A stretch of DNA of 64,000 nucleotides, from sequence record OR677401; one strand, given 5' to 3'. The stretch is from Escherichia phage LQ5. The notes under the pieces were generated by a model. That model searched no databases. It was not told where the DNA came from and was given only the letters and a program-made list of their open reading frames with translations. A program made the position numbers and the translations under genes. How positions within the stretch are numbered: position 1 is the first letter of the stretch; every line of letters starts with the position of its first letter. Of the stretch, positions 18,853 to 49,035 are shown one piece after another.

Positions 18853-19075
18853 AGAATATGTAGAGGCTGCCGATAAGGCAGTCCGCGAACTTACTCTAGC
18901 TTATTATAAAGAGCACGGTAAATTTCCGGACAGTTATTCAGTATTGAAATCTGCTTTAACTCGCTCGTATAATAATATACTATCTGATGTGTATAATTTA
19001 AAATATGAGCACATGGAAAAATACGGAACAGAACTCGACCGTTCTGAAGCATTCAAACAAATATTAGGAATTTAA
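18839..19075 (+). CDS. hypothetical protein
   Basis: ATG 18839, out of frame with and overlapping previous ORF by 14 nt. Confidence 0.5.
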
Positions 19076-19076
19076 A

Positions 19077-19340
19077 ATGTTTAAAGTTTATGGTTATGAT
19101 TCAAATATTCACCGTTGTGTTTTCTGTGATAATGCCAAACGACTGCTTGAGGTTAAGAAACAACCTTACGAATTCATTAACGTGATGCCTGAAAAAGGTG
19201 TGTTTGATGATGAGAAGATTGCCGAACTCCTGGCTGCTCTTGGACGCGAATCTCAGGTAGGTTTGACTATGCCTCAGGTATTTGCTCCGGACGGAACTTC
19301 TATTGGTGGCTTTGACCAACTGCGAGCTTATTTCAAATGA
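19077..19340 (+). CDS. nrdC: thioredoxin/glutaredoxin NrdC
   Basis: 87 aa, CVFCDNAK active site; collinear with T4 NrdC as recalled. Confidence 0.9.
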   Translation: MFKVYGYDSNIHRCVFCDNAKRLLEVKKQPYEFINVMPEKGVFDDEKIAELLAALGRESQVGLTMPQVFAPDGTSIGGFDQLRAYFK

Positions 19341-19498
19341 TTGAATTAATGTTGGTTGTTTTGTATCTTATCATCGGTATTGGTTATGCTAAGACCCTAG
19401 CTAAATTAGATGATTCAGGTGACTTTTGTTCATGGCTGACGTCTATGATTTGTTGGCCTTTATTTCTGGTTGGTGCTTCATTCTGGAACTTCAAATGA
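19337..19498 (+). CDS. small hydrophobic protein (53 aa)
   Basis: ATGA-coupled to nrdC; below the 60-aa ORF-track cut-off. Confidence 0.45.
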   Translation: MIELMLVVLYLIIGIGYAKTLAKLDDSGDFCSWLTSMICWPLFLVGASFWNFK

Positions 19499-19683
19499 CT
19501 GAATTTGATACAGCTTATGGAACCTGCGCAAGAGAGTTTACAAGTGAGTTTGATACTCCTGCGCCTAGTAAAGAAACCGTATTGGCAAATCTCCCGGATT
19601 GGTTAAAAGAAGAAGCCAACGAATGGGGCTGGACTGATACTTGTGTACGTGACCAGCTATTTGAATTTATGGTGGAATTATGA
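19495..19683 (+). CDS. hypothetical acidic protein
   Basis: ATGA coupling. Confidence 0.5.
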   Translation: MTEFDTAYGTCAREFTSEFDTPAPSKETVLANLPDWLKEEANEWGWTDTCVRDQLFEFMVEL

Positions 19684-19988
19684 TTGAATTAAACGAACAA
19701 ACCATTTTTCTAGGTGATGGTACCGAAGATGACCTAGAGTATAAACTATACGAATATATGGTTTGGCTGGCTAAAGCAGAAGGTGTAGACTTTGCTGTAG
19801 CTCATCCATATGGCGAGAACACCGTTGTAATCGGTGGCACTGCTTATGAAGTCCAATGGCAATACGTTGGCCTTGAATCTGAAGAATTTGAAGAAGATGA
19901 ACACGGTGATTGGCATCCAGTCGGTCCTTGGTACTGGGAACACGGTGAACCTGATTTTGAAGTAAGTAGTTGGTGGTGTGACAGTTAA
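19680..19988 (+). CDS. hypothetical acidic protein
   Basis: ORF 102 aa. Confidence 0.55.
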   Translation: MIELNEQTIFLGDGTEDDLEYKLYEYMVWLAKAEGVDFAVAHPYGENTVVIGGTAYEVQWQYVGLESEEFEEDEHGDWHPVGPWYWEHGEPDFEVSSWWCDS

Positions 19989-20034
19989 GCCATGGTATGT
20001 CGCTCGGTGGAAAACTACCGAGCCAGAGGAACCT

Positions 20035-20064
20035 GTTTACAACGATTCCGAAATAGAGTATAAT
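20035..20064 (+). promoter_or_regulatory. sigma70-like early promoter
   Basis: GTTTAC, 18-nt spacer, TATAAT. Confidence 0.55.
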
Positions 20065-20110
20065 GAACCTTCAAACAATGATTTAATTGATATGGAATAT
20101 GGGTTTTACT

Positions 20111-20296
20111 ATGAAAACTGAACTGATTTATACTGAAAAGTTAAATGGCGGTAAAGTCTGGAAACTTCTTATTAAAGGAAGTCCTACTGATCAGTTTATG
20201 GCCACTTGTGTAGGGTTATACACCCGTCCTACTAAAAAGATGATTCGTCAATTTAAACGGTTGCATCGCTCGTTTTATAGTACATTTGAAAAATAA
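20111..20296 (+). CDS. hypothetical basic protein
   Basis: ATG 20111. Confidence 0.5.
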   Translation: MKTELIYTEKLNGGKVWKLLIKGSPTDQFMATCVGLYTRPTKKMIRQFKRLHRSFYSTFEK

Positions 20297-20333
20297 TAAA
20301 TACCCTTATCTAATAATGGTAAGGGTATAGGTC

Positions 20334-21407
20334 ATGCAAGATTTCGGGCATTGGGCGGTATTTGAAGAAGTTGATATTAAAAATTATATTGGATTTGTGT
20401 ATGTAATCACTTTTGAAGATGGCAAAAAATATGTCGGTGCTAAAAAGATTTGGAAACGAATCAAAGCTGCACCTTGCACATTTAAACGTGGTCCTAAAAA
20501 AGGGTTTGAGGAATCTGATTGGAAAACCTATACCTCATCATCCAATGAATTGAACGCAATGATAGAAAAGGGTATAAGTCCAAAAGAATATCTTATTGTA
20601 GGATGGTACCCTACTTGGGGTAAAACTCTTATGGCAGAAATGGAAATGCAATTAGCCAATGATGTTTTACGAGACCCTATGTGGCTCAATAAACAAATTG
20701 GCGGGCATTTCAACCCTAACTGCTTTGACGATTTAACAGAGGATGATATTGCAAGATGGATGGAATTTGATAAAGGGAATGAGCATGTTTCTTGGCCTAT
20801 GATGTATAAAATTGGCCAGAAAACCAAGTACGTTAAACCTGATGAAGTTAGTGAGTATATTAAATCTGGATGGCAATTTGGTCGTTCTAAAATGGAAAAA
20901 CATTCTGTTACCTATAATTGCTCTAAATTTACTATATGGGACTATGAAGAAAACAAGCCGGTGGAAGTAATAAATCAAAACGAATTCGCTCGTAATAATG
21001 ATTTAAGTAGCAACCATTTAACAAGGCTTCTTCAAGGAACCCTCGACCTAATTAAAGACCGATGGGGCCTTCCACCAGATATTGCTCGTCAGCGTTATAA
21101 ATTTCAGGACGTTTCTTCAGGAACAAAATTTTTATCCAATTCCGAGTTAGAAGAATTTTACGGTATGACTCGCGGTCAGGCTAACAAAGCTATTAAAGAT
21201 GGAAGAGCTGTTAAATTAGTAGTCGAAAGCAAAGAAGACCATATTAAAAAACTTGGCTCTATCGAATTGGTAAAAACCGAAAAGACAAAAGTTACGTCTC
21301 AAGTAATGCTTAACAGTTTTAAAGATATAGTTAATCCTATGACTACTGCCGAAAAATCAGAAATGATTGAATGGTTGGAAAGTTATATAACTTATTTGAA
21401 ATCTTAA
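20334..21407 (+). CDS. GIY-YIG-like homing endonuclease (seg-type)
   Basis: N-terminal YIGFVYVITFEDGKKYVGAKK fits the GIY...YIG pattern; AT-rich gene. Confidence 0.5.
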   Translation: MQDFGHWAVFEEVDIKNYIGFVYVITFEDGKKYVGAKKIWKRIKAAPCTFKRGPKKGFEESDWKTYTSSSNELNAMIEKGISPKEYLIVGWYPTWGKTLMAEMEMQLANDVLRDPMWLNKQIGGHFNPNCFDDLTEDDIARWMEFDKGNEHVSWPMMYKIGQKTKYVKPDEVSEYIKSGWQFGRSKMEKHSVTYNCSKFTIWDYEENKPVEVINQNEFARNNDLSSNHLTRLLQGTLDLIKDRWGLPPDIARQRYKFQDVSSGTKFLSNSELEEFYGMTRGQANKAIKDGRAVKLVVESKEDHIKKLGSIELVKTEKTKVTSQVMLNSFKDIVNPMTTAEKSEMIEWLESYITYLKS

Positions 21408-21423
21408 TGAGGAAATCGCTTAA

Positions 21424-21549
21424 ATGATTAATTTTTATGGCTATACATTTTATGCTTTAGCCGAATCTCTGAACGATGCGGTTCGTATTATGGGTGTTGA
21501 GTATCCTGCTCAATGGTTATTTGTTGTAACTAACATGTGGGTTCTTTAA
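21424..21549 (+). CDS. micro-ORF (41 aa)
   Basis: ATG after GAGGAAA; coupled to next gene by TAATG. Confidence 0.3.
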   Translation: MINFYGYTFYALAESLNDAVRIMGVEYPAQWLFVVTNMWVL

Positions 21550-21764
21550 TGAACAAATTTCGTAATGCTGTTTCTGATATCCTGGCCAATATTACATTAG
21601 TTCTGTTTATCGTATGCCTTTTAATCCTGGCTATTCCGTTTGGATTGCTGTTCATGATTATTGGTGCTCTGAGTACTGAAAAAGGTCTTGAAGGGTCTGA
21701 GTTCGAAAAACGAATCCAGGCTGTTCATAGTGTTATTGCAAAAATGATGAAGGTGAAAGAATGA
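21549..21764 (+). CDS. small membrane protein
   Basis: long hydrophobic stretch ITLVLFIVCLLILAIPFGLLFMIIGAL. Confidence 0.55.
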   Translation: MNKFRNAVSDILANITLVLFIVCLLILAIPFGLLFMIIGALSTEKGLEGSEFEKRIQAVHSVIAKMMKVKE

Positions 21765-22072
21765 AACGTTTTGAAGAATATGTAGCTTTGAATTGGACCG
21801 CTTGGGACAAGTTTGGTGATGATTGGTACTTCCATGACTGTGACCTGAACCCGGAATTCTTTAAAGGTAAGGAAGAAGACCTCAAGGACATCTACGCTTT
21901 ATCAGAGATTCATGGTATTAAACCTACTGTCTATTTCTCTTTTGATGATACCGGGTTCCTTGTACAGATTTATGTTCCTTATGAAACTGTTGATGACGAA
22001 GCTGTTTGTGAAGAAGTTCTAAAAACCTGGGACTACCAAGGAGTTATTTCCTGTGGACCAAAAGTTAACTAA
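21761..22072 (+). CDS. hypothetical protein
   Basis: ORF 103 aa. Confidence 0.55.
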   Translation: MKRFEEYVALNWTAWDKFGDDWYFHDCDLNPEFFKGKEEDLKDIYALSEIHGIKPTVYFSFDDTGFLVQIYVPYETVDDEAVCEEVLKTWDYQGVISCGPKVN

Positions 22073-22370
22073 AATTGAGATTTACGGTATCCCTGAGACA
22101 GTCATGCGCTGTCCAGGGTGCATTGCTGTTCTATCGCTCCTAAATTCCCTTTCTATCCCATATACTTTCTATCCTGTGATTAACCAGACGCCGTCAGGCG
22201 CAGTATATGACAAGCCTCTTATAGTATCATTGGCCAAACGTGCAGGCTTCAAGAGCTTAGCGATACGCTATCCTGTCATATTTGTCGATAATAAGAAAAT
22301 AGAAAATATTCCTGCCTTCAAATCGCTTTTGATTGAACTTGGTTATGACCGAGATTTAATTGAAGATTAG
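22053..22370 (+). CDS. CxxC thioredoxin-fold-like protein (possible NrdH-type redoxin)
   Basis: KIEIYGIPETVMRCPGC motif. Confidence 0.4.
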   Translation: MDQKLTKIEIYGIPETVMRCPGCIAVLSLLNSLSIPYTFYPVINQTPSGAVYDKPLIVSLAKRAGFKSLAIRYPVIFVDNKKIENIPAFKSLLIELGYDRDLIED

Positions 22371-22371
22371 T

Positions 22372-22400
22372 GTTTACTTCCTCTCCTCACGTGTTATAGT
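22372..22400 (+). promoter_or_regulatory. T4-type early promoter with SD-sequestering inverted repeat
   Basis: arms tcctcacgtgtt (22384-22395) and aacacatgagga (22411-22422). Confidence 0.6.
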
Positions 22401-22429
22401 CTATCCTATCAACACATGAGGAGAACATT

Positions 22430-22612
22430 ATGACTATCCAAGATAAAGAAATTAAAGCCGACCAGTATTATTTGGTAAATGGGCGTGCGGTTCGTGTAAT
22501 TGCTGCTAGCGATTCAGACGTATGGTACCGTGTACTAGACCATAGAAATATTCCATTGATGGTATGTGACCGTAGTTTGTTTTGTTCGATAGCTAAGGAA
22601 ATTAAATTATGA
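22430..22612 (+). CDS. hypothetical protein
   Basis: GAGGAGAA before ATG. Confidence 0.55.
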   Translation: MTIQDKEIKADQYYLVNGRAVRVIAASDSDVWYRVLDHRNIPLMVCDRSLFCSIAKEIKL

Positions 22613-22863
22613 GCCTGAAATTACACTCAATGAAAAATATCATTACCCTTAATCTGGATGATGAGCGCCTGATTTTTCTCACCGTCACTGATAAGAATAT
22701 TGAAATTGCAAATGGTCCTAAGACTTATTGTTGCCCAGTGAAGAATTGGAAACATGTAACCTTTTTGACCCTGTGCGACCGTCTGAAAGATATTAAGTTA
22801 GATTTGGATGTCAAAGATGTCCAATACATTAAAAATCTTATTGGATACAAACTGCTGAGGTAA
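22609..22863 (+). CDS. hypothetical protein
   Basis: ATGA coupling. Confidence 0.55.
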   Translation: MSLKLHSMKNIITLNLDDERLIFLTVTDKNIEIANGPKTYCCPVKNWKHVTFLTLCDRLKDIKLDLDVKDVQYIKNLIGYKLLR

Positions 22864-22865
22864 CT

Positions 22866-23159
22866 ATGGGTAAAACTATTCGTCGTAAAGAATTGTCTGT
22901 AAAAGATTTTTATTATTCCGGACGTCGTAAAGCACCGGACGGCGTAAGTCAGGAACTGGTTGAAGAAAATATCTTCCGTTCTGACAAGTGGAAACGTATG
23001 CGCGGTGTTGATTCTGAAGTTAAGAACGAAATGAACCGCCAGCTTCGTAAAGAAGTGAGAAAGCTGAAAAAAGATGTTTACAATGACGATGAACCTGATT
23101 ACAATACTTCTCATCGAGTTGCAAAACGTAAATCAAACGAGTGTTATCGTTACAGCTGA
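22866..23159 (+). CDS. hypothetical basic protein
   Basis: ORF 97 aa, Lys/Arg rich. Confidence 0.55.
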   Translation: MGKTIRRKELSVKDFYYSGRRKAPDGVSQELVEENIFRSDKWKRMRGVDSEVKNEMNRQLRKEVRKLKKDVYNDDEPDYNTSHRVAKRKSNECYRYS

Positions 23160-23166
23160 GGAAAAT

Positions 23167-23379
23167 ATGAATCCACAATCTTTATTGTCACAACGTATTG
23201 CTGAAGAACGTCGTCAATTCTTTGAAAATATGAGAGCCCAAGGTATTGATGACGAACGTTTTCTAATTTGGTTTTGGGACCACAAGCACTCAAGCTGCTC
23301 CGGTGCTTTGTTACTTTCCGCTGGAATGATGTACGAAGGCTGGAAAGGTGCATTAAAATATAAATTGAAACAGCAATAA
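23167..23379 (+). CDS. hypothetical protein
   Basis: GAGGAAAA before ATG 23167. Confidence 0.5.
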   Translation: MNPQSLLSQRIAEERRQFFENMRAQGIDDERFLIWFWDHKHSSCSGALLLSAGMMYEGWKGALKYKLKQQ

Positions 23380-23408
23380 TTTACAAACTCTTGGGACCAG
23401 AGTATAAT
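23380..23408 (+). promoter_or_regulatory. sigma70-like promoter with -10 inside a palindrome
   Basis: TTTACA, 17-nt spacer, TATAAT; inverted repeat tgggacca (23392-23399) / tggtccca (23408-23415). Confidence 0.5.
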
Positions 23409-23447
23409 GGTCCCACGGATTATAAATTTTTAACTGAGGAAATTATT

Positions 23448-23777
23448 ATGTCACAAGCTATTAAAAACGTACTGAACTCTTTCGCTTTCGATAAAGTAAA
23501 CGAACTGATGAATACCGGTTTTGTGACTCCTGAAATTCTTGACCAATGGGTTGCTGAACTGCTGCCAATCATGCACTCTAAAGACCAGAAAATTGGTAAG
23601 AACGGTATTCGTGAAATCCTGGTTCAATATATCCTTGATGAATTCGATGTCGCTGCCTTTGGTGTAGAATCTAAAGCTTGGGCCCCTGGTGAAATCACGG
23701 ATAAAACCATCCGTCGTATGAAAAACCAACGTAAGAAAAAATTCGTTGACCTGAAAATTGTTAAGGCAGCGAAATGA
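23448..23777 (+). CDS. hypothetical protein
   Basis: leader tgaggaaattattatg identical to the 15635 gene leader. Confidence 0.6.
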   Translation: MSQAIKNVLNSFAFDKVNELMNTGFVTPEILDQWVAELLPIMHSKDQKIGKNGIREILVQYILDEFDVAAFGVESKAWAPGEITDKTIRRMKNQRKKKFVDLKIVKAAK

Positions 23778-24040
23778 TTAAAATAAAACTCTCTAATTAC
23801 GATAAAAACTTGGAAATGATTGCTATGAAAGAAGAACTCTTGAATGATGTCCACTTTACAGGTTATGCAGTTCAATTTAATGGTGATGGGACTCTCCAGA
23901 TTGAGGGTGACCACTTTATCATCGAATACGAATTTAAACAGTATTGGCTGTATGCAAAAGATGAGGTTGGCGGTGTTGATTACGTCGACGAGTTCGATAA
24001 CCTAGATGATGCCTTGGAAGGAGCTCGATTCCTACAATGA
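23774..24040 (+). CDS. hypothetical protein
   Basis: ATGA coupling. Confidence 0.55.
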   Translation: MIKIKLSNYDKNLEMIAMKEELLNDVHFTGYAVQFNGDGTLQIEGDHFIIEYEFKQYWLYAKDEVGGVDYVDEFDNLDDALEGARFLQ

Positions 24041-24300
24041 AACCCATATCCACCACCCTCGCCTACGAAGGTCTCGGATTTTTCTTAATAGATAACTGTA
24101 TGGATGTTGAGTTTGTTTGTGGTGAGACTTCTTTAGTATGGAAGTCTCATATTTCCAAATACAACCATCGTGAATATCCAAGTCTTTTTAAAGAATTTTG
24201 TGGATATATGTCTGAACATGGATGTACTGATACAATTTCTTATTCCGAGTTCACACAAATCCTTGAAACCGTATTTCAGGCTTATTGCTTACTCCGTTGA
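24037..24300 (+). CDS. hypothetical protein
   Basis: ATGA coupling. Confidence 0.55.
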   Translation: MKPISTTLAYEGLGFFLIDNCMDVEFVCGETSLVWKSHISKYNHREYPSLFKEFCGYMSEHGCTDTISYSEFTQILETVFQAYCLLR

Positions 24301-24335
24301 TGCTTTAAAAGGGTCTTCAAATACTATGATATAAT
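24301..24335 (+). promoter_or_regulatory. possible MotA-dependent middle promoter (TGCTTTA box plus -10)
   Basis: TGCTTTA at 24301-24307, TACTAT/TATAAT downstream; upstream of gene 55. Confidence 0.3.
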
Positions 24336-24366
24336 AGACCTATGATTTGAGTTATCTGAGGTAACA

Positions 24367-24924
24367 ATGACCGAAATTAAACTGACTAAAAATAACTATG
24401 TAAATAATAAGGAGCTTCTGAAAGCTATCACCCAATGGAAAACAGAACTCAGAGAAAATACCGATCCTAATAAAATAGTTCGCCAGAACGACGTTATCGG
24501 CTTGGCTATTATGCTCATTGCTGAAGGACTAAGTAAACGTTTCAACTTCTCAGGATATACCCAATCTTGGAAGCAAGAAATGATTGCTGATGGAATCGAA
24601 GCTTCGATTAAAGGTCTTCACAACTTCGACGAAACAAAATACGACAACCCACATGCATATATCACTATGGCTTGTTTTAATGCCTTCGTTCAGCGTATCA
24701 AAAAAGAACGTAAAGAAATGGCAAAGAAATATAGCTACTTCGTCCATAATGTCTATGACAGTAATGATGACGACATGGTAGGTATTGCAGATGAAACCTT
24801 TATCCAAGATATCTACGACAAAATGACTCAGTATGAAACCTCTTTAACTAAAGCACCAGGGTCTGATAAGAGTGCCGAACCTAAAGTTGGTGAATTGGAT
24901 TTTTTATATGGAACATCAGATTAA
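24367..24924 (+). CDS. 55: late-transcription sigma factor gp55
   Basis: 185 aa, long collinear match to T4 gp55 as recalled ([55 protein letters not shown]). Confidence 0.95.
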
Positions 24925-25138
24925 TATCACTCCACTTTTAGATGGAATGGAAGACTTCGAAGCACTCCCTTATTTTATTAAATTGATATTACGGGATGTT
25001 AAAGGCCTTCCTATTGATATTGACCCACTTAACGTCAGGAATATTGAATTCACTTCTCCTGATAATAACGTAGATTATCGTTATCATGTTGAGAACGCTA
25101 ATTTCTACTTCACTATTGAATTGACTCCAAAGGATTAA
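24908..25138 (+). CDS. hypothetical protein
   Basis: ATG 24908 overlapping gene 55 end. Confidence 0.5.
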
Positions 25139-25907: not shown

Positions 25908-26762
25908 ATGAAATACATTACATACCTGACAATATATTCCGGGACTAAGCTTCCACCGTTTTATATAGGGTCCACTACTTTAGAGAAGCATTTAAAAGGA
26001 TACCATGGGAGCGTCCTTTCTAAAGCATATAAAGAAATCTATAACAAGGAGCTTTTAGAGCATCCTGAATTATTTGACTCATGTATTGTAAGTGAACACC
26101 CTACAAGAGAAGAGGCTTTAGAAGCTGAAAGAATGTACCAGTTAAGAACCGATGCGGCCCAAAATCCTCTATTCTTTAATATGGCTGTCGCAGCTCCTAA
26201 AGGATTCTTTGGGCTTTCGCTACCTAAAGAGCAACACCCTCTTTACGGCTCTCATAATGCTAAAGGATATATTCATTCCTATAATCCTGTTACATTAGAA
26301 CAAACCTTTGCACCTACAGTCCCCGAAGGATACGTAGAAGGTCGTTCTCCTAATTATAAAGCGTCTAGTCATAATAAGGGTAAGAAGTGGTATAACAATG
26401 GCGTTGATAAAGGATTATTTGTAGAAGGAAAACAACCTGAATCTTGGGTCCTTGGCAGTTTTCTAACCGATGAACATAAGAAAAACTTGAAAAAGACCGA
26501 TGGGATATATGACCCTGATATTCAAAAAGAATTAAAAGAGCTTTGGATTTCTACTGGATTTTTGCCACCGTATAAATTTAGAGAAATAGCTTTAGCTAAA
26601 GGTTTTATGGATGGTAATTATCACAATTTGGTTTATAAAATTTTTAAGCCTACAGTTACAATTACTAGACCTAAGAAAATCTGGGCTAATGACGGCATAA
26701 AAAGCTTTATGATTTCTGAGATAGAATTTAATAGTGAAATACATTATAAAGGTAGATTATGA
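25908..26762 (+). CDS. GIY-YIG-like putative homing endonuclease
   Basis: YITYLTIYSGTKLPPFYIGST N-terminus; AT-rich; sits where T4 carries alpha-glucosyltransferase. Confidence 0.4.
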   Translation: MKYITYLTIYSGTKLPPFYIGSTTLEKHLKGYHGSVLSKAYKEIYNKELLEHPELFDSCIVSEHPTREEALEAERMYQLRTDAAQNPLFFNMAVAAPKGFFGLSLPKEQHPLYGSHNAKGYIHSYNPVTLEQTFAPTVPEGYVEGRSPNYKASSHNKGKKWYNNGVDKGLFVEGKQPESWVLGSFLTDEHKKNLKKTDGIYDPDIQKELKELWISTGFLPPYKFREIALAKGFMDGNYHNLVYKIFKPTVTITRPKKIWANDGIKSFMISEIEFNSEIHYKGRL

Positions 26763-30607: not shown

Positions 30608-31306
30608 ATGAAATTCTCTAAAGAAACTCTGAACATTCTGAAAAACTTCTCCAGTATTAACCCAGGTATCATGCTTAAGCCTGGTAACACTATTCTAACT
30701 CGTTCAGTAACGGGTGCAAGTTATGGTGAAGCTACTGTAAGCGATACCTTTGATATCGAAGCCGCAATCTATGATTTGAACGGCTTCTTAAGTATTCTGT
30801 CATTGGTATCTGATAGTGCTGAAGTTTCGGTAAGTGAAGACCAAACCACCTTAATTATTAAAGACCAACGTTCAACTATTAAATGGCCTATTGCCGACCC
30901 AAGTACAATTGCATTCCCAAGCAAAGCTATTCCATTCCCGGTGGCTGAAGTTATTTTTGACCTTAAAGCCGAAGATTACCAACAGTTGATGCGTGTGTCC
31001 TCTGGATTGAGTATTGATACATTTGCTATCACTGTAGACAACGGTAAAATTGTAATCAATGGCTACAAACAAGTTGATGATAAGGACCTGGCACGTCCAT
31101 TGTATTCCTTAGTGGTTGCAGACCATGATGGTCCTGAATTCAAATTCATTATCAACAAAACCAATATGAAAATGATGCCTGCTGATTACCATGTATTGCT
31201 ATGGGCTCGTGGTGAAGGTCAGGATGCTCGTTTCGCAGCCAAGTTTGAAGGTTCACAAGCTTCTTATGTATTGGCTATGGAAGCAGGCTCAAGCCACTCG
31301 TTCTAA
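30608..31306 (+). CDS. 45: sliding clamp gp45
   Basis: collinear with T4 gp45 N-terminus as recalled (LKNF..IN.GIMLK.G..I.TR.V.G..Y.EA..SD..D...AIYDLNGFL.ILSLV). Confidence 0.95.
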   Translation: MKFSKETLNILKNFSSINPGIMLKPGNTILTRSVTGASYGEATVSDTFDIEAAIYDLNGFLSILSLVSDSAEVSVSEDQTTLIIKDQRSTIKWPIADPSTIAFPSKAIPFPVAEVIFDLKAEDYQQLMRVSSGLSIDTFAITVDNGKIVINGYKQVDDKDLARPLYSLVVADHDGPEFKFIINKTNMKMMPADYHVLLWARGEGQDARFAAKFEGSQASYVLAMEAGSSHSF

Positions 31307-31872
31307 TGTACATTTGCTATCATAATACAATAACAAATACCAAAACTAAGGATGTCTACCATTATTTCGGTAGACACCGTGTTACTCCTGAAGAATATTA
31401 TGGTACTGGTAAATTTGTTAAGAAATGCAAACGAGAAAATGCTATAACTCCTGGTGTTTGGGAGTTTAGTATTGAGGTTGTCCACAAAGCGGATACATTT
31501 AAAGAAGCCAAACTTATTGAAGAGGCACTTGTTAAAGAAGGTATTGCCAAGTATGGTTCACGTTGTGTTAATAAAGCTCCCGGTGGTCCGGGTGGTGTAG
31601 ATTTCCACAGTGCTGAATCTAAACGTAAGATGTCTATCAGCCGAACCGGAAAATCAAGAACATTTTCCGAAAGCCATAAGCTTAATTGCTCTAAATGGCA
31701 ACGCTCTGAAATATGGCAGAATTATGAAGAGCTCCGTAAGATTTGGATAGAACTTGGTATGCCTAAAAAGGGTAGATTTAGTACGCTTTTACAAAATTAT
31801 GGATATAATTATTCTGCAAACGAATTGAATAAAATTGTTAAACATTTTAATGAGGAAAATAATAATGAGTAA
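31306..31872 (+). CDS. degenerate GIY-YIG/seg-like homing endonuclease-like protein
   Basis: YICYHNTITNTKTKDVYHYFG N-terminus parallels the 25908 gene; C-terminal HSAESKRKMSISRTGKSRTFSESHK resembles DNA-binding repeats of phage homing endonucleases; inserted between genes 45 and 44. Confidence 0.4.
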   Translation: MYICYHNTITNTKTKDVYHYFGRHRVTPEEYYGTGKFVKKCKRENAITPGVWEFSIEVVHKADTFKEAKLIEEALVKEGIAKYGSRCVNKAPGGPGGVDFHSAESKRKMSISRTGKSRTFSESHKLNCSKWQRSEIWQNYEELRKIWIELGMPKKGRFSTLLQNYGYNYSANELNKIVKHFNEENNNE

Positions 31873-48378: not shown

Positions 48379-49035
48379 ATGAATTACGAAAAAATATACC
48401 AGGAATTAATATCTAAAGGAAAATTAAGAGGTTCTAAGCGGTCTTTATCATATTATACGGAAGAACACCATGTTATACCTAGATGTATGAATGGTTCTGA
48501 TGATAAAAACAATTTAGTTGCTTTATTGCCAAGAGAACACTTTGTAGCTCATAGGCTTTTAACAAAAATATATCCCGAAGTAAAAGGTCTACATTATGCT
48601 GTTAATTTAATGAGATATAATAAAGGAGTTAAATTAACTAGTAGAACTATAGCCACGTTAAGAGAAAATAACGCTAAAGCATTTTCAGGAAAAAATAACC
48701 CGATGTTTGGTAAACCTTCCTGGATTAGAGGGATGAAAACTCCTGAAGAAACTAAAGCCAAAATGCGCCTGGCTCATAAAGATAAAATTATATCTGATGA
48801 AGCCAAGGCCAATATGAGTAAAGCTAGAAAAGGAAGATTTAGTGGTAAAGATTCCCCTAGATATGGTTTACCGAATCCTAGGCGTGGAGAAATATGGAAT
48901 AGTTACGATATGCTTTACGAATTATGGGTTTACAATAATAAACCTAAACGCACCAAATTTAATAAAATAGCTGTTGATAATGGATATCCTGATATTTGTT
49001 ATCGACGAATGATAGAAAACTTTAATAGGAAATAA
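48379..49035 (+). CDS. HNH homing endonuclease with C-terminal DNA-binding repeats
   Basis: EEHHVIPRCMNGSDDKNNLVALLPREHFVAHRL HNH core; repeats NNPMFGK, TPEETKAKM, SDEAKANMSKARKG; AT-rich. Confidence 0.8.
   Translation: MNYEKIYQELISKGKLRGSKRSLSYYTEEHHVIPRCMNGSDDKNNLVALLPREHFVAHRLLTKIYPEVKGLHYAVNLMRYNKGVKLTSRTIATLRENNAKAFSGKNNPMFGKPSWIRGMKTPEETKAKMRLAHKDKIISDEAKANMSKARKGRFSGKDSPRYGLPNPRRGEIWNSYDMLYELWVYNNKPKRTKFNKIAVDNGYPDICYRRMIENFNRK

Follow-up and report, generated by a model that had tools for sequence, protein, structure and literature searches.

A GIY-YIG nuclease gene with an endonuclease VII-derived C-terminus occupies the gene 49 slot in Escherichia phage LQ5 and other T4-like phages

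Endonuclease VII, the product of gene 49 (gp49), is the textbook phage Holliday-junction resolvase. The T4 enzyme is represented by the PDB entries 1EN7, 1E7D, 1E7L, 2QNC and 2QNF. In T4, gp49 is essential, and RB16 and Aeromonas phage 65 were named as phages without gp49 that carry 'putative alternative nucleases' (Petrov et al. 2010, PMC2993671). A second group of described relatives are the GIY-YIG homing endonucleases of T4, SegE and the other free-standing Seg proteins. In eukaryotes, Slx1, a structure-specific endonuclease and subunit of a Holliday junction resolvase, provides a precedent for the resolution of junctions and flaps by a GIY-YIG active site (PMC3045582, PMC9071465), and F-CphI of cyanophage S-PM2 is a homing endonuclease with an endonuclease VII catalytic motif (PMC6083498). 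Here, we describe a gene for a 357-amino-acid (aa) GIY-YIG protein in a stretch of 64,000 nucleotides (nt) of Escherichia phage LQ5 (sequence record OR677401), referred to at its full length as the window. The gene stands in the slot of gene 49, between nrdC and gene 55. It is probably a gene 49 derivative with a swapped catalytic module, and its most likely role would be that of a substitute branch-resolving and packaging nuclease for endonuclease VII.

Like T4 endonuclease VII, the LQ5 gene occupies this slot down to the start codon, carries the same leader and encodes a C-terminal helix corresponding to gp49 residues 83-97; long-form relatives carry gp49 residues 84-157, including the dimerisation domain PF09124. 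Unlike it, the LQ5 protein lacks the HNH/zinc domain, catalysis would be of the GIY-YIG type, residues 98-157 are lost and the length is 357 instead of 157 aa. The putative alternative nucleases of Petrov et al. 2006/2010 are RB16ORF270c and 65ORF061w. In RB16, the protein RB16p243 has 57% full-length identity to that of LQ5, and its gene takes the place of gene 49 between nrdC and nrdD; in Aeromonas phage 65, ST65p046 reaches 35% identity across aa 1-237. The 'putative alternative nuclease' that Petrov et al. assigned to RB16 appears to be a member of this GIY-YIG family. The Seg endonucleases share PF19835, a modular DNA-binding region with a Seg-type repeat, patchy occurrence within genera and, commonly, control by a late promoter and hairpin (PMC2988022). 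In contrast to them, the LQ5 gene replaces a gene, keeps to one slot across genera, excludes gp49, has a gp49-derived C-terminus and is under strong purifying selection; identity to the SegE-like protein of S16 is ∼20% over 123 aligned residues (E=0.005). Slx1 offers a functional precedent, by analogy and not by family membership, for the proposed junction resolution by a GIY-YIG enzyme. Beyond the fold it has no detectable sequence relationship with the LQ5 protein, which lacks a RING/PHD domain and a Slx4 partner. F-CphI exemplifies module exchange between endonuclease VII and homing endonucleases in T4-like phages. It is the converse chimera, with an endonuclease VII catalytic domain used for homing, whereas the LQ5 protein combines a homing-type catalytic domain with a non-catalytic piece of endonuclease VII.

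Three parts make up the LQ5 protein, namely a GIY-YIG nuclease domain of the SegE type, a putative DNA-binding region resembling those of homing endonucleases and the gp49-derived helix:

20334..21407, + strand: chimeric nuclease gene in the gene 49 slot, 357 aa; full-length match to phrog_7363 (E=1e-179, 1-357 of 356 profile positions)
20361..20699, + strand: GIY-YIG catalytic domain, aa 10-122 (Pfam PF19835)
20796..21340, + strand: putative DNA-binding region, aa ∼155-335, Seg/I-HmuI-like, approximate boundaries
21360..21404, + strand: C-terminal helix EMIEWLESYITYLKS, homologous to gp49 83-97 (tblastn, DNA alignment, hhalign)

The match to PF19835 (SegE_GIY-YIG) over aa 10-122 reached E=5e-34 and 117.6 bits against a cut-off of 25. 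The canonical residues, namely the GIY and YIG tyrosines, the catalytic Glu102 and the structural Asn, are invariant in the family alignment, and the domain has the GIY-YIG fold. PF02945, the HNH/zinc catalytic domain of endonuclease VII, was not found in the protein; there was no Pfam match, and tblastn and phmmer searches with gp49 recovered only a 13-aa stretch of the C-terminal helix. An AlphaFold2 (AF2) model had a mean predicted local distance difference test score (pLDDT) of 77, with values below 50 in the linker (residues 111-155) and mostly above 85 in residues 200-357. The last two helices (321-333 and 338-356) were predicted confidently and may take part in oligomerisation. A Foldseek search with the whole AF2 model returned no match, and neither did sequence and profile searches of the short form, as found in LQ5, against PDB sequences.

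The genomic background of the gene was assessed by megablast with positions 19000-25000 of the window. The matches were JS98-like T4 relatives of the genus Dhakavirus, the best being Shigella phage PSD9 (95.7%), followed by vB_EcoM-E33 and Bp7. PSD9 is the nearest complete genome, with blocks across the whole window that are 93-99% identical. Within Dhakavirus the GIY-YIG allele is present in PSD9, Bp7, E33 and the window and is not carried by JS98, IME08, QL01 and WG01. Among the relatives with informative annotation, those with a query coverage of 96-97% (Bp7 RefSeq) or 87% (phage 005) have the gene annotated as 'homing endonuclease', and in most of those with 77-82% coverage endonuclease VII is annotated.

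Comparison with JS98 at the nrdC-55 locus (segment L002, where gene 49 spans 4799-5272) revealed the borders of the exchange. Homology between the window and JS98 ends at 20329 (L002 4796), 3 nt before the ATG of gene 49, and restarts at 21408 (L002 5253). Between these points 1078 base pairs (bp) with the GIY-YIG open reading frame (ORF) stand for 456 bp of gene 49 (L002 4797-5252, that is, gene 49 minus its last 20 nt). The GIY-YIG gene is an allelic replacement, and gene 49 was exchanged in place rather than lost by deletion. The following elements of gene 49 frame the new ORF:

20295..20302, + strand: late-promoter-like AATAAATA from the gene 49 leader; same sequence upstream of gene 49 in JS98 and T4
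20300..20328, + strand: RNA hairpin of the gene 49 leader, 11-bp stem, ending 5 nt before the ATG; same hairpin 5' of JS98 and T4 gene 49
21408..21427, + strand: relic of Dhakavirus gene 49, its terminal 20 nt (TGAGGAAATCGCTTAAATGA), no longer in frame or coding; 20/20 nt shared with JS98 gene 49 (nt 455-474)

These 20 nt 3' of the GIY-YIG stop codon are the only local relic of the replaced gene. The leader hairpin has a minimum free energy of -15 kcal/mol (z = -3.8), and none of 200 shuffled sequences folded as well. A box and a hairpin just 5' of the ATG were present in gene 49 and in the GIY-YIG genes of all lineages examined; in S16, TG1, Ac42, PSD2001 and the loci L011 and L012, the GIY-YIG genes have the same layout with different stem sequences. 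The leaders were folded one by one, and the shared layout and the covariation of its stems were judged by inspection, as RNAalifold on the upstream regions gave no consensus structure owing to differing loop lengths and a poor alignment. The AATAAATA-type box is reportedly the late promoter of gene 49. For repression of translation through sequestering of the ribosome-binding site (RBS), Barth et al. 1988, the paper on gene 49, is cited in PMC2988022, with a gene list there of 'soc, e, 39, 25 and 26', not 49. By its sequence, the leader indicates that the GIY-YIG gene is likely expressed late.

The C-terminus of the protein is of endonuclease VII ancestry. By tblastn, 9 of 13 aa within EMIEWLESYITYLKS were identical to T4 gp49 85-97, part of the gp49 83-97 segment DYLEWLENLLTYLKS, and a 38-column DNA alignment of the helix region to T4 gene 49 contained ∼33 identical bases. 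When short forms were aligned with gp49 by hhalign, residues 343-357 paired with gp49 83-97 over 15 columns, a match that is weak alone (E=0.035). The helix is kept in RB16, S16, TG1, Ac42 and 20 short-form sequences (alignment A2). Due to this conservation it is a family trait and not local debris, and the idea that the 13-aa match is a fresh relic of the replaced Dhakavirus gene was ruled out.

Further support for a gp49 origin is provided by metagenomic long forms. P0023 (427 aa), P0024 (432 aa) and P0025 (499 aa) combine PF19835 with PF09124 (E 1e-11 to 5e-16). The short-form helix is collinear with these proteins, in which the next ∼60 aa are the endonuclease VII dimerisation domain. Residues 359-430 of P0024 aligned without gaps to gp49 86-157 (44% identity, E=5e-19), and T4 endonuclease VII chains were the sole matches of P0024 among solved structures (E=1.4e-14). 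The P0024 and P0025 genes also lie between nrdC-like genes and nrdD. Since long relatives hold the whole dimerisation domain, the family can be read as a gene 49 derivative in which the HNH/zinc catalytic domain was presumably swapped for a GIY-YIG module and DNA-binding region; short forms such as that of LQ5 appear to have lost gp49 residues 98-157. The long forms are either ancestral or arose secondarily by recombination between a short form and a resident gene 49 at the shared helix. In P0025 (L011 8001-9500, Logan SRR14300940) two stretches match the dimerisation domain, and the downstream nrdD is split by an I-HmuI/NUMOD-like ORF.

In at least eight lineages of T4-like phages, a GIY-YIG protein of this family holds the gene 49 slot. 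By tblastn, a single full-length copy in each genome, at 54-72% identity, was detected in Tegunavirus (TG1, phiR1-RT), Gelderlandvirus (S16, STML-198, Melville), the RB16 group (RB16, leE, Klebsiella phages), Ac42, Aeromonas avDM phages, Gaprivervirus PSD2001 and others; full-length identity was 57-72% to RB16p243, S16 gp48, TG1 gp083 and Ac42p114. The family occurs in 12 Escherichia-phage records, which do not include JS98, IME08 or T4. More distant homologues were found in 253-kilobase (kb) vibriophages and in Aeromonas phage 65. Matches in Synechococcus phages were rejected as orthologues, since they comprise the GIY-YIG domain only (34% coverage, E=2e-7). In RB16 and S16 the gene is located directly 5' of nrdD with a 4-nt overlap, as is gene 49 in T4. 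It follows pinA in TG1 and lies two genes 5' of nrdH in Ac42. In Vibrio phage D484 it is found on the opposite strand between 'head morphogenesis' and RNA ligase genes, which is the position of gp49 in phi-pp2/KVP40 (PMC3468402). Within the RB16 group, 10 records have the GIY-YIG gene, and the 15 listed records with ∼75% coverage mostly have endonuclease VII at dam-nrdC-[X]-nrdD, with flanks that are 90-92% identical.

The GIY-YIG gene and gp49 exclude each other. The complete genome of S16 contains no gp49 detectable by tblastn or phmmer --max. As a broader query, residues 1-344 of the GIY-YIG protein were joined to T4 gp49; this chimera matched 2202 phage records at 2206 places, 60 of which were listed. 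Among the matches listed, all 45 records with a full-length orthologue matched the GIY-YIG part only, at one place. Four of the 2202 records, outside the 60 listed, had two matching places and could hold both genes or a duplicated gp49. The sole exception to exclusivity was PSD2001 (OK254198, L021 4540-4780), which has a gene 49 relic just downstream of the GIY-YIG gene. There, the GIY-YIG gene is followed by the 3' end of a Dhakavirus gene 49 and the start of a small MINFYG ORF, and then by the relic, which comprises 46 aa, corresponds to gp49 residues 118-157, is annotated 'endonuclease VII' and overlaps the start of nrdD. This arrangement is the footprint of an incoming cassette.

The GIY-YIG gene is under purifying selection. 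Over the first 257 codons the LQ5 and Bp7 genes differ by 49 synonymous and 7 non-synonymous changes, and the identity of the protein to S16 (72%) and RB16 (57%) is equal to or higher than that of gp55, gp47, NrdC and NrdH. The Bp7 gene (NC_019500, L001 4617-5690) has three 1-nt deletions, after nt 773, 912 and 938, which jointly restore the frame and of which at least the first lies in a GG run; its annotation consists of a 'homing endonuclease' cut short at 271 aa and a further small ORF. The deletions are probably sequencing errors. Positions 20334-21407 of the window are identical to PSD9 95981-97054 (1074/1074 nt), with neighbouring blocks at 93-96%, a mosaic that suggests recent exchange of the segment. 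The patchy distribution within genera, the PSD2001 footprint and the 100% DNA identity inside 93-96% flanks show that phages exchange the cassette. Its landing site is always gene 49, which could reflect ordinary recombination via gene-49-derived ends or true homing.

If the protein substitutes for endonuclease VII, it would be made late in infection and act as an oligomer, probably a dimer. It would supply the activity for which recombination and DNA packaging in T4 depend on endonuclease VII, namely debranching and the cutting of Holliday junctions. The patchy distribution would then result from allelic replacement of gene 49 in mixed infections, by means of shared flanks and possibly by cleavage of gene-49 alleles by the protein itself (homing).

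Several observations weigh against this interpretation. The proposed function is deduced from position, exclusivity and ancestry. The gp49 remnant is a helix of 13-15 aa, weak alone (E=0.035-0.045), and the D484 and phage 65 homologues lack even this helix. In addition to PF02945, PF09124 was not found in the 357-aa protein by Pfam. A GIY-YIG domain with an extended DNA-binding region is the architecture of sequence-specific homing endonucleases, and the distribution within Dhakavirus and the RB16 group is patchy, as for mobile elements. T4 homing endonucleases, too, typically have a late promoter and a hairpin that sequesters the RBS (PMC2988022), and the leader therefore suits a homing endonuclease as well as a substitute nuclease. 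If the Bp7 frameshifts are real, the C-terminal third would be dispensable there, and phage 005 carries a 33-aa in-frame deletion, in or beside the low-confidence linker. The equation of RB16ORF270c with RB16p243, like the assignment of the old ORF names to current locus tags in general, is putative. Lastly, the rest of the LQ5 genome lies beyond the 64-kb window.

A tentative, less probable extension of the substitute-nuclease reading is that a domesticated homing endonuclease, together with the non-catalytic part of endonuclease VII, forms an oligomeric GIY-YIG junction-resolving and packaging nuclease that would still convert gene-49 alleles in mixed infections. Homing and functional substitution are compatible with each other, a point that also counts against a purely selfish interpretation. 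According to the latter, the main rival, which we consider unlikely, a Seg-type homing endonuclease targets gene 49, turns its alleles into copies of itself and thereby destroys the gene, and the phage survives as activities such as the terminase nuclease, gp46/47, UvsW or host RuvC/RusA cover for endonuclease VII. The SegE-type domain and homing-endonuclease-like DNA-binding region fit this, as does the RefSeq label 'homing endonuclease'. Moreover, the gene is present or absent at one locus among close relatives (Dhakavirus, RB16 group, Gaprivervirus), as expected of homing endonucleases. The PSD2001 cassette, with its Dhakavirus-type flanks, left a relic of the resident gene 49, the LQ5 and PSD9 genes are identical inside more divergent flanks, and the gene 49 slot is occupied even in the different neighbourhood of D484, which fits gene 49 itself as the target. 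However, homing endonucleases are inserted between or within genes and leave host functions intact, whereas here gene 49 is replaced and no gp49 is left. Intact gp49, essential in T4 (PMC2993671), is missing from carriers of the GIY-YIG gene. The latter gene has not decayed but is under strong purifying selection, is single-copy and is conserved across genera at the level of core proteins. A gp49-derived helix across genera and a full dimerisation domain in the long forms would be of no obvious use to a selfish endonuclease. An essential gp49, its perfect mutual exclusion with the GIY-YIG gene, purifying selection and the retention of dimerisation parts weaken the purely selfish explanation.

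It is weakened, too, by the true strain-specific insertions of the window:

25908-26762 (insertion 25921-26734, 814 bp): homing-endonuclease-like ORF, 284 aa; phrog_10820 (E=2e-83) and phrog_314
31306-31872, in a 594-bp segment absent from PSD9: 188-aa ORF, flanked by genes 45 and 44; similar to phrog_314 'homing endonuclease' (E=3e-16), weak NUMOD3 match
48379-49035, in a 680-bp segment absent from PSD9: HNH/NUMOD3 ORF, 218 aa; 33% identity to T4 MobC, phrog_655 (E=2e-54)

These three homing-endonuclease-like insertions are intergenic indels absent from PSD9 and differ clearly from the GIY-YIG gene. The 814-bp insertion is also absent from Bp7 and JS98 and stands where gene 47.1 would be; its 284-aa ORF overlaps the start of gene 47 by 4 nt.

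A role other than endonuclease VII function or homing, for example as a nuclease against host or competitor DNA or as an anti-defence factor, with gp49 function being dispensable, is improbable. It is compatible with a function so far read from sequence, but it leaves unexplained the strict either/or with gene 49 at the same locus, the retained dimerisation domain or helix and the retained gene 49 leader.

The remaining alternative, which had been raised by the sequence-only reading of this DNA, is that gene 49, nrdD and nrdG were relocated. Absence tests on LQ5 itself span the 64-kb window of a genome of ∼170 kb; genome-wide tests were based on the complete PSD9 genome (169,768 bp, put together from four pieces). 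Relocation outside the window is extremely improbable: PSD9, with blockwise 93-99% identity and identical GIY-YIG DNA, has no match to gp49, NrdD or NrdG anywhere, these genes when present sit in the nrdC-55 block in every T4-like genome inspected, and gp49 was found elsewhere in 0 of 45 GIY-orthologue records among the matches listed.

The interval itself contains the following genes:

19077..19340, + strand: nrdC, thioredoxin/glutaredoxin-like, left border, 87 aa; 85% identity to T4 NrdC and 99% to JS98 NrdC; Pfam Glutaredoxin (E=5e-7)
19680..19988, + strand: gp49.3 homologue; 78% identity to T4 gp49.3 over 102 aa; phrog_4203
19978..20121, + strand: gp49.1 homologue (tblastn with T4 gp49.1, E=8e-15)
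20111..20296, + strand: small ORF akin to the T4 Pin C-terminus (DUF7279; JS98 orf76); 95% identity to JS98 orf76, match to the last 18 aa of T4 Pin; PF23945 (E=4e-16)
21537..21764, + strand: gp55.8 homologue, small membrane protein (tblastn with T4 gp55.8, E=9e-12; phrog_1930)
22053..22370, + strand: nrdH glutaredoxin homologue; 61% identity to T4 NrdH
23391..23777, + strand: gp55.2 homologue; 128 aa with a TTG start, or ∼109 aa counted from the first ATG
24367..24924, + strand: gene 55, late sigma factor, right border, 185 aa; phrog_234 (E=9e-69); 79% identity to T4 gp55

The T4 gene order that the earlier reading had assumed agrees with record NC_000866, which reads nrdC, 49.3, 49.2, 49.1, pin, 49, nrdD (with I-TevII), mobC, nrdG, 55.8, nrdH, 55.6 to 55.1 and 55; nrdG is directly 5' of 55.8, and nrdD and mobC sit between gene 49 and nrdG. 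Apart from the missing genes the LQ5 interval is syntenic with T4; it has counterparts of 49.3 and 49.1, of the Pin C-terminus, of 55.8 and nrdH, and of the 55.x genes. That the interval lacks gene 49, nrdD and nrdG, as had been claimed, was borne out by tblastn over all 64 kb, for gene 49 with gp49 of T4 and of JS98, which gave no significant match except the 13 aa of gp49 at the end of the 357-aa ORF. The 357-aa ORF at 20334-21407 is real; it had been taken for the only ORF above 105 aa, a length that the gp55.2 homologue at 23391-23777 also exceeds. At the junction 20102-20111, the pin-like orf78 and orf77 are deleted, so that the 49.1 ORF directly abuts the DUF7279 ORF. The deletion corresponds to JS98 L002 4124-4577, for which there is no counterpart in the window; JS98, Bp7 and PSD9 keep both ORFs between 49.1 and orf76.

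T4 NrdG and the translations of both nrdD exons gave no significant tblastn match in the window. As a positive control, the identical queries detected NrdD and NrdG of S16 at 76% identity. The nrdC-55 locus of JS98 also lacks nrdD and nrdG, and gene 49 is directly followed by 55.8 there. TG1 and Ac42 have a likewise nrdD/nrdG-less arrangement. For nrdD and nrdG, the proposal that the lineage lacks them therefore stands, with both absent genome-wide from PSD9 and at the locus from JS98, and the absence looks like an ordinary lineage trait. Gene 49 has to be considered apart, since JS98 carries it here. Since the loss of nrdD and nrdG is common to JS98-type Dhakaviruses without the GIY-YIG gene, it is unconnected with this gene, and the endonuclease does not mark a rearranged region, as had been suggested, but replaces gene 49 ORF for ORF. 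The nrdC-55 interval is the Dhakavirus version of the T4 block, hit by two independent events, loss of nrdD/nrdG and replacement of gene 49. The nrdH gene is kept in LQ5 despite the absence of nrdD and nrdG; the same is true of JS98, TG1 and Ac42.

The family to which the LQ5 gene adds a member has been flagged in the literature before, and the gene is present, unremarked, in the GenBank relatives PSD9, Bp7 and E33. A literature search found no description of the descent of the C-terminus from endonuclease VII, of long forms, of the repeated allele-for-allele replacement or of the Dhakavirus alleles. In databases these genes go under 'homing endonuclease' or 'hypothetical', and genome surveys that count gp49 among the core or quasi-core proteins will therefore call it missing. 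The long forms show a probable route of exchange, in which the oligomerisation scaffold stayed and the catalytic module on it was changed. Natural pairs of closely related phages that differ in having gene 49 or the GIY-YIG gene at this locus, with neighbour proteins 85-99% identical (JS98 versus PSD9, Bp7 or LQ5; leN versus leE), are suited to testing whether a GIY-YIG enzyme can take over junction resolution and DNA packaging. If the protein does resolve junctions as a domesticated homing endonuclease, it would represent a class of phage resolvase new to experiment, and if it also still converts gene-49 alleles, a selfish element would spread through the destruction of an essential gene whose function it replaces.

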